DNA from: a virus
Direction: 5' to 3' (one strand)
IMG/VR virus record: IMGVR_UViG_2919361683_000002
Location: 81,711-145,710 of that record
Length of the DNA: 64,000 bases
The notes beneath the pieces were generated by a model. It was not told the origin of the DNA. It searched no databases and worked only from the letters and a program-made list of their open reading frames with translations. The translations under genes were made by a program, and so were the position numbers. Within the stretch, counting starts at the first letter, position 1. Every line of letters starts with the position of its first letter. Below, one piece after another: positions 11,032 through 31,976 of this stretch.

Positions 11032-11181
11032 CATCTTGTTTTTAATTATTTTTGTTAGTATAATAACAAATAGAAAGAGCGAAGATAGGTTTAGAAAAGT
11101 ACATAATAGAATTTAACTAGTAGTAAAAATAAAAATAAGATGAGAAGTTAACAATAAGGTTAAATGAGGAGTGATTACATA

Positions 11182-11550
11182 ATGGCGGTAGCAATGGAAA
11201 GAATGACAAAAGAAATTAAACGTTTGGATATGTGGAATGTACATTTGGGGAGTAATAAAGGGAGTGTACAAAGTGGTGAAAGACCATGTGTGGTGATTGG
11301 TAACAATATGGGAAACAAGTATTCTCCAGTAGTTATAGTGGCTCCTGTAACATCACGTGTAAAAAAAGAAATGCCTACTCATGTAAAAGTAAGTGGAACA
11401 GACACAGGACTATATAGCGATAGCATCATTTTGCTGGAACAAATTATGACTATATCCAAAGATCAATTAGATTTTAAAATTACCGAACTTCCAGATAAGT
11501 ATAGTCATGAAATTGTGGATGCATTATCAGTTTCATTGGCAATGAGATAA
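11182..11550 (+). CDS. mazF: MazF/PemK-family endoribonuclease toxin (no adjacent MazE)
   Basis: GSVQSGERPCVVI.N..GNKYSP..IVAPVTS...PTHV...DSIILLEQI.TI.K; start refined to ATG 11182. Confidence 0.88.
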   Translation: MAVAMERMTKEIKRLDMWNVHLGSNKGSVQSGERPCVVIGNNMGNKYSPVVIVAPVTSRVKKEMPTHVKVSGTDTGLYSDSIILLEQIMTISKDQLDFKITELPDKYSHEIVDALSVSLAMR

Positions 11551-14218: not shown

Positions 14219-15538
14219 GTGACGATATTGAAAAAAGAGAGAAGCGAATTAGAACAACGTCTAACTGAAATTGTTGAATCAAATAAAAATGATAAGAAAA
14301 GCATTTTAAAAATTAATGATCGTTTGAGTGCATTGGGAGTTCCATACGGAGAATATAATAAAATAATAATCAACACAAAACTGTTACAAGATACTGATAT
14401 TTCACTTATATGTGTGATTACAGAAGTATTGCAAAGTGTACTTGGTAATACAATAATTGATGTAATGGACTATTTTAGCCATAATGAAATAAACGAAGCA
14501 AAAGAAAACATTAAATTGATCTATCAAAAAGATTATTTAAAACTGCCTATTACTTTTGAAGACGTAATACAAATAGATGAAAGATCGTATTCTACAAAGA
14601 TTACTATACAGATGTTGGTACAAATGTTCAATTCTCAATTAATTAATTATGACCCACGTTCCCAACGTGGTATGAGATACAAAGGTAATACTCGCGATGG
14701 TGTAGTGGAGTCACCCATTGTTAACCAAACGAGTGTAAAAAAAATTGCTCAAAAAATTCTAAATCAAAGCTATCTTGCAGATACAATTACTTTTAATGTA
14801 TTCGCATACGAGCACCAACCTGTGACATATGATAAAGAAAATTATACTCTCACAATAAACGAAAAAAGTATAATTTCCATACTCGATGGATACCATCGTT
14901 TTCAAGGTCAAATTAAAGCTTTGAACACAAAAGAAGACATTGATTTTGTATCTCCTCTTTCAATAAGAGTATATGACAACACCACCGCAGAACAATATTT
15001 TGGTCAAATAAATACCATAAACCCCTTGTCCAAGGAAAGAAGAAAAGAACTACAAGCGGAAAAGAAGTCAGATAACGTGGTAAAAGAATTACAAAATAAT
15101 CCAAATAGTGAACTAAGAGGGATTAGAATTGCTTCTAGCAAAAAGGCAAATAAAGAAGTTGGTCAACTTACAACTTTCAGTATTTTGTCATTCGGAATTG
15201 AAAAAACATTTAACCCAACTAATTATGTTGAGTACAGAGAAGTCTCAGAATATTTAATTAAATTTTTTGGTTATTTAATTGGCTTTTATTACGACGAATT
15301 TATTGAAAATCCCAATAAACACACTTATATCAACAATCCTTTTATGTTCCTTGGGTATACGGTTATTGCTAAACGTTTTTACGATGAGAATAGAGAATTG
15401 AAAAGTTTGAAGAGTGTTGTAGATGAGATCAATTTTGAAGATAATGATTTGATTGAAATTCTTGAATCGAAGAGAATTTACGACAATAAGAAATTACAGG
15501 GAGAACTTATAAAATATTTTGAGCGCACTATAAAATAA
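14219..15538 (+). CDS. DGQHR/DndB (ParB-like) protein, SPbeta YopQ-like
   Basis: ISILDGYHRF motif; directly upstream of the YopR-like gene as in SPbeta; likely TTG start at 14228. Confidence 0.7.
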   Translation: MTILKKERSELEQRLTEIVESNKNDKKSILKINDRLSALGVPYGEYNKIIINTKLLQDTDISLICVITEVLQSVLGNTIIDVMDYFSHNEINEAKENIKLIYQKDYLKLPITFEDVIQIDERSYSTKITIQMLVQMFNSQLINYDPRSQRGMRYKGNTRDGVVESPIVNQTSVKKIAQKILNQSYLADTITFNVFAYEHQPVTYDKENYTLTINEKSIISILDGYHRFQGQIKALNTKEDIDFVSPLSIRVYDNTTAEQYFGQINTINPLSKERRKELQAEKKSDNVVKELQNNPNSELRGIRIASSKKANKEVGQLTTFSILSFGIEKTFNPTNYVEYREVSEYLIKFFGYLIGFYYDEFIENPNKHTYINNPFMFLGYTVIAKRFYDENRELKSLKSVVDEINFEDNDLIEILESKRIYDNKKLQGELIKYFERTIK

Positions 15539-15555
15539 CAAGAGGTGTCTTATTA

Positions 15556-16545
15556 ATGAACCGTATATATGGAGACAATCTATATAATCCAGATATAAAA
15601 CAAAGGTTTTTAGAGGGATATAGAAAAGCAACAAGAGGTAATTATGAAAGTAAATTAAAACGTGCAAGCAAGGTTGAAATGAAATACAACAAAGATTTGT
15701 ATAATTTTAGTTTGTCCGAAATCGAAGAGGTTATGTATTTGTTGGCTCCCAATAAATTGAGTTCGGCAACTATATATGGATCGGTAATTAAAAAATACAT
15801 CGAGTGGGCTATTTCTCAAGATCTTAGAGCTGATAATCTGAATCCACTTGATGTTGTTAATGGTAAGGAATTTTATGAAAAGTTTATTCCAAAGCAAATT
15901 CTTATAAGAGATGACGATCTTGAGTTAGCGCTTGGTAAAATTGATAGCAATAGAGATATTGTTATAATTCAAAGTATATTTGAAGGCATTCTAGGACGTG
16001 AATGCTCCGAAATCAGGAACTTGAAAAAGCAAGATATAAATCAAGCCAATGGGACAGTAAAACTGACAAACGTTGGACGATATGGGGAAGTGGAAGAACG
16101 AGAAATAGAGATAAGCGAATTTTTATTGGAAGCAATGCTTAGAGCCGATGAGGAGACAGCTTATAGCTCGAATTTCGGTGAAGGGAGTCTCAGTAATAAA
16201 AAAATCAGCAGCCTTAAAGACAGTTCTTATATCATAAAAAGCACTAAAGACGAAAAAGTTAAACAGACCCTTATATCTCAAACTATCACAAAGTTTGCTA
16301 CAAAGCTAAATATGGATAGATTGTCTCCAGTAGACATAAGGAATTCAGGAATGCTAAAAATGGCGAAAGATTTTTATGTTGATAATAAGGGTAAACTGGA
16401 GAGAAGCGATATACATGAAATAAGCAAAAAGTTTAATGTGGGCAGTAAAGATGGAGAGATCTTCTATACAACAATGTACACAAAAGACTTTTTAAATATA
16501 GAAACAATAATAAGAATATATCCAGAAGTACTTGAAGTAGAATAA
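15556..16545 (+). CDS. Tyrosine-recombinase-fold repressor, SPbeta YopR/MrpR-like
   Basis: LYNPDIKQRFL..., KYNKDLYNFS, YIEWAI, IFEGI.G...SEI.NL, LSP.DIRNSG match YopR as I recall it; the HxxR His is lost. Confidence 0.75.
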   Translation: MNRIYGDNLYNPDIKQRFLEGYRKATRGNYESKLKRASKVEMKYNKDLYNFSLSEIEEVMYLLAPNKLSSATIYGSVIKKYIEWAISQDLRADNLNPLDVVNGKEFYEKFIPKQILIRDDDLELALGKIDSNRDIVIIQSIFEGILGRECSEIRNLKKQDINQANGTVKLTNVGRYGEVEEREIEISEFLLEAMLRADEETAYSSNFGEGSLSNKKISSLKDSSYIIKSTKDEKVKQTLISQTITKFATKLNMDRLSPVDIRNSGMLKMAKDFYVDNKGKLERSDIHEISKKFNVGSKDGEIFYTTMYTKDFLNIETIIRIYPEVLEVE

Positions 16546-16569
16546 GTTTTTTCTTATTCTACTTTTTTT
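16536..16569 (+). terminator. Intrinsic terminator after the YopR-like gene
   Basis: AGTAGAATAAG-6-CTTATTCTACT plus T tract. Confidence 0.75.
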
Positions 16570-16580
16570 ATGTTTAGATG

Positions 16581-16609
16581 TTGACAGATCTGATTACTCA
16601 TGATATATT
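16581..16609 (+). promoter_or_regulatory. sigma-A promoter of the agr-like operon
   Basis: TTGACA-17-TATATT with an extended TG. Confidence 0.7.
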
Positions 16610-16656
16610 CACTATATAAATTAATTATATTTGTATTTAGGGAGAGAAACAGCAGA

Positions 16657-17298
16657 ATGGAAACAATCAAATACATATTATTGTCTATGTTTGATGGAGT
16701 AGCAATTTTTACATTTGGTTTTGGGATGTACCAAGTTAAGCTTCGTGAGTATTGGATACAGTTTGTGGTGGCGAGTTTATGTATATCTGTTGCTACTTAT
16801 CTATACAGAGATTATGGACTACCAGAGAACTTTGCTCCCATTGTAAATATAGGTTTGATGATCGTTTTTCTCATTTCTTTGTTTAAGATATCGCTACTTT
16901 CATCACTTAGAATTTCTGGAATTAGTTTTTTGTTTTCATTTATTGCTCAAACAATAATCGCAGTCCTTTTTATGGTATCAACATCGAAGTCATTAGATTC
17001 AACACTTTTTACATATGGATATATAGTACAAATAGCAGGGGACAGTATAGTAATCTTTACAAGTCTATATTTAAGAAAAAAATCTATCTGGTTTACTACA
17101 TTACCCTATCAATACTCCTTAAAATTCAAATTAAATTTCTCGAATATCACTTTGTTAATTGCGTCACTTTTAGGCGTAACATTTATGAGTAAATCTATTT
17201 TCAATAATATATATGTAAGTGGTCTTTTTTGGCTGGCAATATTCGTCATTATGATAATGATTGAATTTAGAAAGGAATTAAAAGATGAGAATAATTGA
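16657..17298 (+). CDS. Polytopic membrane protein, AgrC-like sensor region without a kinase domain
   Basis: 6-7 hydrophobic helices; no HisKA/HATPase motifs; overlaps agrB; ATG 16657 with RBS AGGGAG. Confidence 0.7.
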   Translation: METIKYILLSMFDGVAIFTFGFGMYQVKLREYWIQFVVASLCISVATYLYRDYGLPENFAPIVNIGLMIVFLISLFKISLLSSLRISGISFLFSFIAQTIIAVLFMVSTSKSLDSTLFTYGYIVQIAGDSIVIFTSLYLRKKSIWFTTLPYQYSLKFKLNFSNITLLIASLLGVTFMSKSIFNNIYVSGLFWLAIFVIMIMIEFRKELKDENN

Positions 17299-17824
17299 TC
17301 ATTTTGTTGACAAAGTGAGCCACCAATTAAAAAATAAATATCCAGACGAGTTGCCTTCATATGGTATCATCCGATATGCTTTAAAGTTCATAATTACAAA
17401 TACTATACCTATTCTTTTGATAATATTGTTTTCTCTGATTTTTGGAAATTTAAAAGAAAGTTTAATGGCGATACTTGGCTTCTCACTACTAAGAATATTT
17501 TCGGGAGGGTTTCATTTTCAAACTCCCGAAAAGTGCATAATTTTTTCGACAGTAATGATTATTCTTATTTCTGAACTTGGCTACTATTTTACTGCACATA
17601 CTTTTATAATGTTTATAGTTAGTTTGCTTTTAGTTCTAATTTACGCACCAAGCGATATACAAAATCAAACAAAAGTAAAAAAAGAAAATTATAAATGGTT
17701 TAAAATTATTTCATTGTTGTTAGTTTCAATATTTTATTTAATAAACAACCCAATATCTAATCTAGCTATATTAGTTCAAAGTATTCTTCTTATTCGCCTG
17801 AAGGGAGGTGAAAAGGAAGAATGA
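17285..17824 (+). CDS. agrB: AgrB-family peptide-processing membrane protease
   Basis: LLRIFSGGFHFQTPEKC retains the catalytic His/Cys; IYAPS. Confidence 0.92.
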   Translation: MRIIDHFVDKVSHQLKNKYPDELPSYGIIRYALKFIITNTIPILLIILFSLIFGNLKESLMAILGFSLLRIFSGGFHFQTPEKCIIFSTVMIILISELGYYFTAHTFIMFIVSLLLVLIYAPSDIQNQTKVKKENYKWFKIISLLLVSIFYLINNPISNLAILVQSILLIRLKGGEKEE

Positions 17825-17940
17825 AAAGCAAATTGATTATGTTAGTTGGCTTCGTTTTTACGATGCTGACTGTAGCAGAAGTAAATCTCGCTAGTTGGAC
17901 GCTGGTATGCAGTGAGCCAGTGCCTGATGAATTGAAATAA
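17821..17940 (+). CDS. agrD: AgrD-like cyclic-lactone autoinducer precursor, 39 aa: MKSKLIMLVGFVFTMLTVAEVNLASWTLVCSEPVPDELK
   Basis: ATGA overlap with the agrB stop; RBS GGGAGGTG; amphipathic leader, Ser core, acidic PxPDELK tail. Confidence 0.88.
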   Translation: MKSKLIMLVGFVFTMLTVAEVNLASWTLVCSEPVPDELK

Positions 17941-18016
17941 TTAAGTGAAACAAATGTTTACCGCCTTGTACTGAATAAAACTTGCAAGGCGAGTAAACGA
18001 ATCGAGGTGAATTCCA

Positions 18017-18382
18017 ATGAAGTTGACAGATACAATCAAGGTAGTAAAAAGAGAAGGTAAAAAAACACATGACCAAGCGATAATGCTTCAAGTTGGAGAA
18101 ATCCGAGCTTTTAAACCTGAAACAAAAAATGGACGAACTACGCTTGTATATTTGACTGATGACGGTGAATACATAGACGAGACCAGAGTAGATCAAACGA
18201 TGAAATTATTTCAAGAACTACCTGAGTTTGAAAAAGCAAGTAGAGGAAGTATGGTTCAGATCGGAAAAATTGAACATATAGATGAAAAGAGTTATAAGAT
18301 TTATGTCAATAAACTTAAAACTCATTTCGTAGATGTAACAGCAATACACTTGAAAAAAATACTAAGTTATTTCAAAAGGTAA
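18017..18382 (+). CDS. LytTR-domain-only regulator (no receiver domain)
   Basis: FEKASRGSMVQIGKIEHID resembles the LytTR motif F.R.hRS.iVN...I; follows agrD. Confidence 0.7.
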   Translation: MKLTDTIKVVKREGKKTHDQAIMLQVGEIRAFKPETKNGRTTLVYLTDDGEYIDETRVDQTMKLFQELPEFEKASRGSMVQIGKIEHIDEKSYKIYVNKLKTHFVDVTAIHLKKILSYFKR

Positions 18383-18422
18383 AATATAATTATCAATAAT
18401 ACATATAAATAACGGTAACTTC

Positions 18423-18600
18423 TTGCATTTTACCTTTTGGTATTGGTATAATGAAGTAAATCAGAACAAACGTTCTTGTTTATTGGCTATTCGACATTTT
18501 GCGACATAAATATTGTAGCTCATTCCATATAAAGGGTTTTGTCAAGAAATATTCGTATGATATGAATTTCAGTTGCCTAACTCTGGAAATATCATATAAT
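18423..18600 (+). promoter_or_regulatory. Regulatory region: extended -10 promoter, LexA box, tandem 0A-like boxes, palindromic operator, second promoter
   Basis: TTGCAT..TGGTATAAT; AGAACAAACGTTCT 18463-76; TTCGACA 18490 and TGCGACA 18500; ATTCGTATGATATGAAT 18551-67; TTGCCT-16-TATAAT. Confidence 0.6.
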
Positions 18601-18636
18601 TAATGTATAGAAAAAATATTACAGAGGAGAAAAGTT

Positions 18637-19017
18637 ATGCAGCATGAAGAGCTAGTCGAAGCATTACAGATTCCTGAAAAGGCAGATATAGTTATCAATT
18701 TGATGAACTTTCTTTTACGTTCAAATGACGATAGAAGTGAAATGTTCTTTTACTGTTGTAAACAAAAAGGCTTAGAGTTGGAGTTTCTTGGGAAGAAAAG
18801 AAGGGCATTAATCGACCAATATGGATATAAAAATAAAGAAGATTTTGTTGCTGATTACTTAGAAGACAAAGTTAGAGCTTTAGAGAAATTATGCCAAGAA
18901 AAAGCGGAAAAATATATATTGGTTAAATTTAAAACGAATAATCCTGACAAGATTTATAATGCCTACACTAAAAACGGAAAATATACAGCAATGATTAGAT
19001 TAGCGTACTTAGCCTAG
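18637..19017 (+). CDS. Hypothetical protein
   Basis: ORF with RBS AGAGGAG. Confidence 0.6.
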   Translation: MQHEELVEALQIPEKADIVINLMNFLLRSNDDRSEMFFYCCKQKGLELEFLGKKRRALIDQYGYKNKEDFVADYLEDKVRALEKLCQEKAEKYILVKFKTNNPDKIYNAYTKNGKYTAMIRLAYLA

Positions 19018-19206
19018 AAGTATAATGCCGACATAGATTCGGCAAATTACATAAGAGAATTTAAAATATAAAAATAATTAAAATAACTATTGACTACACT
19101 CATTAATGCTGATATATTTAAATAGAACCAAAGATTAAGTGAAAGATAATATGAGTAAAAGAATACTTTTATCACGAAGTTATATTTACCAAAAGGCAAT
19201 GAATAA

Positions 19207-19283
19207 GGGTCTTTAGCTCAGTTGGTTAGAGCGGTCGGCTCATAACCGATTGGTCGGGGGTTCAAATCCCTCAAGACCCACCA
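19207..19283 (+). tRNA. tRNA with CAT anticodon, most like tRNA-Ile2 (lysidine, reads AUA); Met not excluded
   Basis: Acceptor GGGTCTT/AAGACCC-A-CCA; D-arm AGCTCAGTTGGTTAGAGC; anticodon arm GTCGG-CTCATAA-CCGAT; T-loop GTTCAAATC. Confidence 0.9.
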
Positions 19284-30815: not shown

Positions 30816-31976
30816 TCAATTTACTGAAAAGACATATCTTTCTGACTGCCCTGACTTGGTATAGTCTATTTTTCCTCCGTGAGTCCATACGTCGTTGCTT
30901 AACCCTGAGACGCTACTTGGGTAAACAGAACTGGAACTATTGTTAGTTAGAAATTTCATATTGTTCCAAATAGCAGGTGTAGTGTATCCATAGTGGAATG
31001 GGCTGGTGGTTGAAGTGGCAGAACCCATAGCTATTGCAGTTAGCCGCTTAACTGATCTACCTGTGCTTCCTAGTCCATTAAATCTAACAACATAAATATC
31101 CGAGTAATTTATTTGCTCTCTAATGGTGAGCGTTGAGTCTGTTGAGTAATAATATACTTTATAGCCGTTAATTTTGTCACCACCATAGAACTTTTTAGTT
31201 GTATCATAGTAATATTTACCACTACTAGGTTGTGGTATGCCATTGGTATTTCCTGAATCAACAGTATGATTTGATTTGGCATGGAACATTGGATACCACC
31301 CAGCTGGAGTAAACTGAGAAGCAATTCCTTCAAATCCAACTTCAGCTACTCCATCAACACCAGTGTATAAGTAGGCTGCCTCTGAATATTTCAAAGCATC
31401 AGTGATATTATAAGTTGGCAAAACAACAGAGTCTGCAACTACGCCATTATATATTTTATTAGTGTTACTAGCGGGAGTTTGAAGGCGATGGAATGCCCCT
31501 GTTTCTTTGCCTGCTGTGTTTCCTTGGTTACCTAAGTAAGATTGTGTAGAGATTCTTTCATGTGGTTCAGTTCCGTATGTAGATTCTGTAGTTGTGATTT
31601 CTCTTGTTTCAAAATTTGATCGGATATCGCCTTTATCGGAGGAGGTTGCGTTAATTAATTCTCCATCTGAATCGAAGTCTAAAAGAACAACTTCTGCATT
31701 TTCCAATTTTTTGATGTTTTCCTTTGTGGTTTGACTAATGCTAGAACTTTCTGTGATGTTGTCTAAAGTTTTATCGAATTCCTTATTGCTCAAAGTTGAC
31801 ATGCCTTTTGCAGTACTAGATGCACCTTTATCTAGTAAGATTTCTTGTTCAATCGCTTCTTTAATATACTGGTCATAGTTGTTGGGAGTAGCATTTTCTT
31901 GGGCATTTGCCATTAAAGAAGGGATTGATGCAGATAGGAGCAAAACAGATAAAGCAACTTTGGCTACTTTTAACAT
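30816..31976 (-). CDS. Secreted YrpD/neprosin-like protein
   Basis: Signal peptide, acidic linker, then GAFHR...LPT...AYLYTG...EVG...GWYP. Confidence 0.5.
   Translation of the reverse strand: MLKVAKVALSVLLLSASIPSLMANAQENATPNNYDQYIKEAIEQEILLDKGASSTAKGMSTLSNKEFDKTLDNITESSSISQTTKENIKKLENAEVVLLDFDSDGELINATSSDKGDIRSNFETREITTTESTYGTEPHERISTQSYLGNQGNTAGKETGAFHRLQTPASNTNKIYNGVVADSVVLPTYNITDALKYSEAAYLYTGVDGVAEVGFEGIASQFTPAGWYPMFHAKSNHTVDSGNTNGIPQPSSGKYYYDTTKKFYGGDKINGYKVYYYSTDSTLTIREQINYSDIYVVRFNGLGSTGRSVKRLTAIAMGSATSTTSPFHYGYTTPAIWNNMKFLTNNSSSSVYPSSVSGLSNDVWTHGGKIDYTKSGQSERYVFSVN

Follow-up and report, generated by a model that had tools for sequence, protein, structure and literature searches.

Can a temperate phage make and read an agr-type cyclic peptide with no histidine kinase of its own, and what would such a signal serve when its genes lie directly behind the master repressor? 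To date, arbitrium is the main known case of peptide communication that sets lysis against lysogeny, and the action of agr peptides is attributed to a histidine kinase. The question is raised by a four-gene cassette in a 64,000-nt stretch of DNA (the window), which comprises bases 81711–145710 of a 176,963-bp IMG/VR provirus (IMGVR_UViG_2919361683_000002; G+C 34%, CheckV completeness 100%) whose host is Paenibacillus. An initial annotation, made from the letters alone, had seen here an operon for a kinase-less membrane protein, AgrB, AgrD and a LytTR-only protein next to a YopR-like gene, and had proposed that it decides between lysis and lysogeny or jams the agr system of the host. In our analysis, the best explanation as a whole, to which we give an even chance, is a phage-borne agr-type module that works without phosphorylation and through which phage density biases lysogeny, its maintenance or induction. 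There is good support for the view that the module produces a peptide and senses it without phosphorylation; that the cassette steers the choice between lysis and lysogeny is what we infer from its position. The elements concerned are as follows.

14219–15538, + strand: DndB/YopQ-like gene (PF14072 DndB, E 1.3e-7; phrog_5732, E 7.7e-93).
15556–16545, + strand: MrpR/YopR-like gene, predicted master repressor with an integrase fold (PF22822 MrpR_N_CB, E 2.8e-24).
16534–16572, + strand: intrinsic terminator of the repressor operon (13-pair stem, 16534–16565, plus T run), kept in relatives.
16581–16609, + strand: sigma-A promoter of the cassette, TTGACA (16581)-17 nt-TG-n-TATATT (16609).
16657–17298, + strand: gene for a stand-alone, kinase-less membrane protein of 213 aa with seven predicted helices (AlphaFold2 model), AgrC-sensor-like, putative peptide receptor (phrog_15604, E 2.7e-10).
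17285–17824, + strand: agrB, AgrD-processing membrane peptidase (PF04647, E 1.1e-27).
17821–17940, + strand: agrD, precursor of 39 aa (predicted ring S-W-T-L-V, linker CS, tail EPVPDELK).
17956–17998, + strand: hairpin between agrD and lytTR (−20.7 kcal/mol, z −4.2; no U tract).
18017–18382, + strand: lytTR, receiver-less LytTR-only DNA-binding protein of 121 aa (PF04397; AlphaFold2 model).

The cassette has the layout that the initial annotation had described. Its promoter matches the consensus at 11 of 12 positions, with hexamers and spacing identical in eight relatives, and the −35 box begins 35 bp past the mrpR stop codon. All genes are on the + strand, in the order membrane protein, agrB, agrD, hairpin and lytTR, and the first three are translationally coupled, with overlaps of 14 nt between the membrane gene and agrB and of 4 nt (ATGA) between agrB and agrD. 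We place the start of the membrane gene at ATG 16657, which is preceded by the ribosome-binding site AGGGAGAG and is equivalent to the position at which the relatives begin; the alternative ATG at 16600 was discarded, as it falls inside the −10 box.

The production side of the module is argued from the family membership of AgrB and AgrD. The AgrB active site R..SGG.H......C (Arg, SGG, His and Cys, with H-x6-C) shows no variation among 11 cassette AgrBs. The AgrD of the window is weak when taken alone (TIGR04223, E 0.17, 12.1 bits against a cut-off of 19); the same family is matched by all 11 of the AgrD family members, with a best E of 1.5e-10. An alignment of the window with ten related prophages, four chromosomal cassettes and the Brevibacillus phage Abouo shows a common layout: a hydrophobic leader ending in small residues, a block of five residues, two linker residues and the motif E/P-x-V/T-P-x-E-L. 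The product had been anticipated as a (thio)lactone; a precursor of a cyclic peptide it appears to be, but the thiolactone is not upheld. Judging from the alignment, the ring is most likely a Ser lactone, SWTLV, because the block opens with Ser in every phage copy and with Cys in two of the chromosomal ones, and because Cys30 is not conserved. A thiolactone on Cys30 of the window was thus rejected: this residue is His or Gly in relatives, while Ser25 is conserved and aligns with the Cys of the two chromosomal members.

Six ring blocks occur among the prophages (SWTLV, SWTLI, SWTIL, SWMLF, SWLWL and SWALF), in which A-S-W is constant and ring positions 3–5 vary, a pattern resembling that of pherotypes. 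The autoinducing peptide (AIP) of the host species P. polymyxa is ICFGLF (PMC12180512), to which SWTLV bears no likeness, and the idea that the phage jams the agr system of its host found no support. The four chromosomal copies (L016, L017, L018 and L044) have predicted rings CWGFS, SAYYI, SFVYV and CAGLL, respectively, with a tail P-E-T/V-P-x-E-L-L-K, and the precursor of L017 carries a long N-terminal extension of about 80 aa.

The membrane protein shares 97% identity with a protein of Paenibacillus sp. CMAA1739 and 57–62% with proteins of P. polymyxa and P. peoriae. It showed no Pfam match at E up to 1 and no NCBIfam match. Its AlphaFold2 model (predicted local distance difference test, pLDDT, 92.5) has seven helices, and the chain stops about five residues past the last of them. 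Basic residues concentrate in the loops at 25–28, 75–79 and 142–160 and in the tail; by our reading of the sequence the N-terminus would lie outside and the most conserved motif, W/F-F-T-T-L-P-Y, would fall within a 19-residue cytoplasmic loop. The model aligns over 192–202 residues, with template modelling (TM) scores of 0.66–0.71, with the N-terminal membrane part of 353–431-aa kinases of family PF14501, which is the AgrC-type ATPase domain; the best alignment (TM 0.71 over 202 residues) is to 431-aa PF14501 kinases, and the shape search against the AlphaFold DB clusters also retrieved several GHKL proteins. By its fold, therefore, the modelled protein looks like the sensor of AgrC; the match is one of shape, not of sequence, and homology is unproven. 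When 1.84 billion representatives were searched exhaustively with the profile, a family of 144 clusters emerged, all of them stand-alone, none kinase-sized and none fused to a kinase; the 147 full-length rows span 190–245 aa, and there are a few shorter ones. The profile search of the PDB with this family gave no match, the protein-language atlas search no usable match, and the profile scan of genome contigs with the membrane-protein alignment no confirmed relative.

The LytTR protein of the window scores 20.8 bits against PF04397, whose cut-off is 22.6, and seven of seven orthologues match the family (best E 4.4e-9). The best solved relative of its profile is the DNA-binding (LytTR) domain of AgrA (3bs1). 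Likewise, Foldseek matched its AlphaFold2 model (pLDDT 92.8) with AgrA, ComE and a B. cereus LytTR domain, all with probability 1.00 and with AgrA at the top (TM 0.63/0.75 against 4g4k). With 121 aa, the protein has no room for a receiver domain. Domain profile searches of the whole 177-kb provirus found no PF14501 or PF02518 (histidine-kinase ATPase) domain and no PF00072 (receiver) domain; the cassette lacks both a kinase part and a receiver, and therefore no phosphotransfer is possible within it.

The gene lytTR has no promoter of its own and must therefore be read through the hairpin that precedes it. A hairpin occupies the equivalent place in ten phage and two chromosomal cassettes, with stems of 10–20 bp, energies of −20 to −28 kcal/mol and z from −2.4 to −6.4; the structure is kept although the sequences are unrelated, and no U tract follows any of them. 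The hairpin probably lowers the amount of LytTR protein relative to that of the membrane protein, as a sequestration mechanism would need.

With the canonical agrBDCA systems (Staphylococcus aureus, Listeria and the paenibacillin-linked agr of P. polymyxa) the cassette shares the AgrB His and Cys, the AgrD leader, five-residue ring and acidic P-x-E-L tail, an AgrC-sensor-shaped membrane protein, an output with the LytTR fold of AgrA and the organization in a single operon. It differs from them, besides the lack of the dimerization and histidine phosphotransfer (DHp) and HATPase parts and of the receiver, in that the predicted ring nucleophile is Ser and not Cys, in the order sensor-B-D-regulator, in the hairpin before the regulator gene, in that no direct repeats of the P2/P3 type were found, and in being phage-borne and adjoining a repressor gene. 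Phage agr genes are known from the C. difficile phage phiCDHM1 (PMC3901668), whose order agrC-agrB-agrD equals that of membrane gene, agrB and agrD here; that phage, however, encodes a complete kinase of 453 aa and lacks a regulator gene.

The nearest precedents for a relay of this kind are the LytTR regulatory systems HdrRM and BrsRM of Streptococcus mutans, in which the membrane inhibitors HdrM and BrsM act free of phosphorylation (Zou 2018, PMC6193735). There, too, the LytTR regulator lacks a receiver and shares its transcript with a membrane protein, although in the cassette a hairpin lies between the two, and it is from these systems that we borrow, by analogy, the proposed mechanism of a membrane protein that holds its regulator. 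The differences are that the membrane protein of the cassette is a seven-helix, AgrC-sensor-like protein without DUF2154, that the gene order is reversed, and that the cassette encodes a dedicated peptide signal (agrBD), while the signals of the LytTR regulatory systems are unknown. In the MHYT-LytTR protein CoxC (PMC11347149) a membrane sensor also controls a LytTR DNA-binding domain without a kinase, but as a single fused protein that senses gas, as against two proteins and a presumed peptide ligand.

The link with the phage decision is drawn from position, persistence, the variant locus L031 and the absence of arbitrium only. The MrpR-like protein shares 26% identity with SPbeta YopR across 97% of its length, and the DndB/YopQ-like gene lies directly 5′ of the mrpR-like gene in all related prophages, so that the order of the SPbeta-type repression module, a YopQ/DndB-like gene followed by a gene with an MrpR core-binding domain, is present here as it is, identically, in SPbeta. 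The order DndB/YopQ, MrpR and cassette was found in all of the about 14 distinct related Paenibacillus prophages examined, down to 26% identity in the membrane protein and 33% in MrpR. The full order, shared by every prophage-borne relative of the membrane protein from IMG/VR, NCBI or Logan, is MazF-like gene, helix-turn-helix (HTH) gene, DndB, MrpR, terminator, promoter, cassette, a gene for about 126 aa, YorF-type genes and an AAA_24 gene. When the survey started from MrpR (IMG/VR), the full cassette lay directly downstream in 10 of the 11 loci whose MrpR identity reaches 42% or more, as well as in one metagenomic phage at 33%; no cassette was found downstream of MrpR relatives below 30% identity. 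Further prophages, with membrane proteins of 32% and 26% identity, show the same arrangement. A recent capture with no association to the repressor in relatives, the outcome that the initial annotation had named as fatal to its proposal, is not what these relatives show.

The components of the cassette have diverged together (26–62% identity for the membrane protein, 32–56% for AgrB and 25–71% for LytTR); the four reading frames are uninterrupted throughout the relatives, and promoter, ribosome-binding sites, overlaps and hairpin are kept despite protein identities of 26–62%. A LytTR-type gene lies 3′ of agrD in all of the about 20 contexts examined that hold the membrane gene. In one relative, L031 (6995–9148), MrpR is followed by a LytTR-only gene and then by the 126-aa gene, without membrane protein, agrB or agrD. 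The retention of lytTR in this relative, where the rest of the cassette is missing, speaks for a LytTR protein that is part of the control region of the phage itself.

No AimR was detected in the provirus, where searches with PF22871 and with the SPbeta AimR protein were empty and the B. subtilis control was recovered; nor was it found in five related proviruses, of which four reach 99% completeness or more. A 386-aa open reading frame (30816–31976, − strand) has exactly the size of AimR, but is unrelated to it. Two further observations concern copy number: one 152-kb metagenomic phage contig (L032 and L035) holds two MrpR paralogues about 13 kb apart, with the cassette behind only one of them and a weak second LytTR-like open reading frame between the two, and L006 has a second LytTR-only gene at 1927–2268.

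Taken together, the mechanism that we propose would run as follows. AgrB would make a Ser-lactone peptide with the ring SWTLV, possibly without an exocyclic tail if the precursor is cut after Ala, and this peptide would accumulate outside phage-carrying cells. Its binding to the membrane protein would change the amount of LytTR protein held at the membrane, by analogy with HdrM and BrsM, and the hairpin before lytTR would hold the regulator below the level of the membrane protein. LytTR protein set free would then act on phage promoters, the nearest candidate being a conserved SOS-controlled promoter region just downstream, and phage density would thereby bias lysogeny, maintenance or induction, which is the job of arbitrium in SPbeta. 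The steps of sensing and relay are proposed because of the fold of the membrane protein, the gene order shared with phiCDHM1, the strict co-occurrence of the genes and the analogy with HdrRM and BrsRM.

Several results weigh against this proposal. The hhalign comparisons of the membrane family with the sensor of phiCDHM1 AgrC were not significant (E 0.22 and 0.33), the further homology search toward the AgrC sensor yielded only close C. difficile relatives, and Foldseek gave no significant match for the membrane protein among PDB and Swiss-Prot models. On the output side, no direct repeats of the LytTR type (9-bp repeats with 19–24-bp spacing; divergent sites could be missed) were found at the cassette promoter or nearby, and none that was convincing upstream of the chromosomal cassettes, whereas HdrRM and BrsRM have theirs 4–11 bp upstream of the −35 box of the operon (PMC6193735). 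Additionally, the mrpR terminator abuts the −35 box of the cassette (its stem ends about 15 nt before it, with no repeats there), and therefore there is no room for an upstream activator site. Finally, more distant members of the family are found on Paenibacillus chromosomes in the same module of four genes, adjoining dnaE/ytrH, tig/clpPX or a cellulase gene and with no phage genes nearby; since the module is also chromosomal, its presence does not by itself imply a role specific to phages.

This last result makes the cassette a general host-type signalling module that has been captured by phages. What had been proposed from the window stands insofar as there are a complete producer, a putative sensor and a DNA-binding output, linked to MrpR and devoid of phosphorelay parts, but not as something exclusive to phages. 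The temperate Brevibacillus phage Abouo carries the same four-gene module (gp44–gp47) between its integrase and a CI/Cro-type pair: the profile of the membrane family gives gp44 133 bits, and gp47 is a LytTR protein that scores 29.4 bits, above the cut-off. BLASTP between the window and the membrane or LytTR proteins of Abouo retrieved nothing, so that the link is through the family profile only, and the IMG/VR scan with gp44 recovered only Abouo itself. A quick, unrooted maximum-likelihood tree of 147 rows, with genomic context known for 12 of them and a careful search unfinished, placed the seven membrane proteins known from MrpR-linked prophages in one clade of 30 rows (Shimodaira-Hasegawa-like approximate likelihood ratio test, SH-aLRT, 91), Abouo gp44 in another part and the chromosomal members elsewhere. 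Because gp44 falls outside the MrpR-linked clade, the simplest reading is that temperate phages captured this host-type module at least twice, each time at the lysogeny control region; likewise, a single, long-past capture in the SPbeta-like Paenibacillus lineage is the simplest reading of the prophage copies.

The same facts can be read otherwise, and the strongest competitor, which we consider rather unlikely though it must be taken seriously, is that the cassette serves lysogenic conversion: a captured host-type circuit whose LytTR protein regulates genes of the host or provides lysogens with a kin signal of their own, and which sits near the repressor only because this region is transcribed in the lysogen and tolerates insertions. 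The chromosomal copies beside housekeeping or cellulase genes in several Paenibacillus species would fit, and so would the PHROGs category of the membrane protein (moron, auxiliary metabolic gene and host takeover), the promoter of its own behind a terminator, and the control of antibiotic production by agr in the host P. polymyxa (PMC12180512). Morons, however, are usually patchy, whereas this cassette holds a fixed position in all of the about 14 prophages after a single inferred capture; L031 retains lytTR alone at the same place; the second, independent capture, in a Brevibacillus phage, is also at a lysogeny switch; and no chromosomal copy of the membrane family appeared among the P. polymyxa-group matches.

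A second competitor, which we hold to be improbable, accepts the peptide but not the receptor. The membrane protein would aid the making or export of the peptide or immunity to it, in a role like that of MroQ or of an exporter, and the LytTR protein would be a separate phage regulator without extracellular sensing, or sensing would proceed via a host kinase. Extra membrane factors are needed for staphylococcal AIP production (PMC9388083; bioRxiv 10.64898/2026.09.29.755489), and the membrane gene is coupled to agrB and agrD while the hairpin parts it from lytTR; the lack of detectable sequence homology to the AgrC sensor and the LytTR gene of L031, present without the other three, point in the same direction. 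Against it, the modelled structure resembles the sensor part found in PF14501 kinases, and the protein is without Pfam match and without protease motifs such as CPBP or PrsW signatures, a PrsW cluster aligning at TM 0.43 only. Moreover, a host kinase cannot act in the usual way on a LytTR protein that has no receiver, a LytTR-type gene accompanies agrD in every context with the membrane gene, and the order sensor-agrB-agrD recurs in phiCDHM1. That the locus is decaying or inert, with no present function, is very improbable: the window copies of AgrD and LytTR fall below curated cut-offs, but their orthologues pass them, and intact frames, invariant catalytic residues and conserved control signals persist across the relatives.

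We return thus to the phosphorylation-free phage signal and to its likeness to arbitrium (AimR-AimP-AimX) of the SPbeta-group Bacillus phages. Both consist of a phage-encoded secreted peptide signal beside a yopQ/yopR-type repression operon, in both the peptide variants differ between related phages, and the role proposed for the cassette, in the lysis-lysogeny decision, is that of arbitrium. There is no homology between them: arbitrium employs a linear hexapeptide, Opp import and a cytoplasmic tetratricopeptide repeat (TPR) receptor, as against a cyclic peptide proposed to act at the membrane, and it lies upstream of the repressor gene, whereas the cassette lies downstream. In its most specific form, the proposal is that the Ser-lactone pentapeptide is the arbitrium-like language of SPbeta-like Paenibacillus phages, with a bare AgrC-type receptor gating a bare LytTR protein and with ring variants as lysogeny or induction pherotypes; this we advance tentatively, as quite possible but rather less than an even bet.

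The initial annotation knew of no description of the arrangement in SPbeta-like phages, and this part remains in place. Kinase-less membrane proteins of phage agr cassettes, on the other hand, had already been remarked on: a single sentence in Hargreaves 2014 (PMC3901668) credits phages Davies, Emery and Abouo with AgrB, AgrD and membrane proteins, the last as possible AgrC homologues that lack the ATPase domain, with no mention of a LytTR-only partner, a four-gene unit, SPbeta-like phages or MrpR. Full-text searches of the literature found no paper treating the four genes as a unit, naming the LytTR-only partner or linking agr to MrpR or SPbeta-like phages. New in the present analysis are the recurrence of DndB/YopQ, MrpR and cassette in this order across the related prophages, the stand-alone membrane-protein family with its AgrC-sensor-like model, the occurrence of the four-gene module on chromosomes and, through a separate capture, in Abouo, and the Ser ring with its six variants. 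Separately, a 2025 review (PMC11945551) says that SPbeta-like phages carry agrB/agrC homologues, but the source it cites is an irrelevant paper on cinnamaldehyde and Listeria AgrA, which leaves the statement with no visible support.

If the proposal is true, a second, unrelated peptide system occupies the same SPbeta-like regulatory slot, a slot that would repeatedly recruit density signals, and the cassette may be the means by which this group of Paenibacillus phages measures its own density. Likewise, kinase-less AgrC-like receptors with receiver-less LytTR partners (a widespread family of at least 144 sequence clusters, both chromosomal and from two lineages of phages) would be a new route from cyclic peptide to DNA. 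Phage decisions would thus have a second peptide language, unrelated to the first, and agr peptides a new route of signal transduction, in a system that is small, modular and directly testable.

The cassette lies between the repressor gene and an SOS-controlled promoter, whose region is the nearest candidate target of the LytTR protein.

18383–18636, + strand: control region of the next operon, outside the cassette and conserved in relatives; candidate target.
18423–18452: promoter P1, TTGCAT-18-TATAAT.
18463–18476: LexA-type box AGAACAAACGTTCT (GAAC-N4-GTTC).
18490–18506: TTCGACA/TGCGACA boxes, one helical turn apart, Spo0A-box-like.
18573–18600: promoter P2.

This region drives a conserved 126-aa gene of unassigned function (18637–19017). 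The palindrome ATTCATATNATATGAAT was considered as a repeated operator and discarded, since there is a single copy only. The sequence CCTTTTGGTA occurs only twice in the 64 kb (0.25 expected by chance), at 18433–18442 (+ strand) and 19187–19196 (− strand), in inverted orientation and flanking the 126-aa gene; one copy lies inside the P1 spacer, both are kept in polymyxa-group relatives, and it is a candidate regulator site. The 567-nt gap past the 126-aa gene contains a tRNA-Met gene (anticodon CAT; 19207–19283, + strand), and the identical tRNA-Met sequence is found at the equivalent place in most related prophages.

DNA similarity of 15500–19100 to 50,697 phage records gave no match. Upstream of the repression module, a MazF/PemK-like toxin gene (11164–11550, + strand; PF02452, E 1e-24) has no obvious antitoxin gene upstream, and its position, adjoining a divergent HTH gene, is kept in all related prophages. 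The 17-mer GAAATATTCGTATGATA occurs just 5′ of a −35 box twice, at about 10990, before the MazF-like gene, and at about 18548, before P2, and may be a shared operator.

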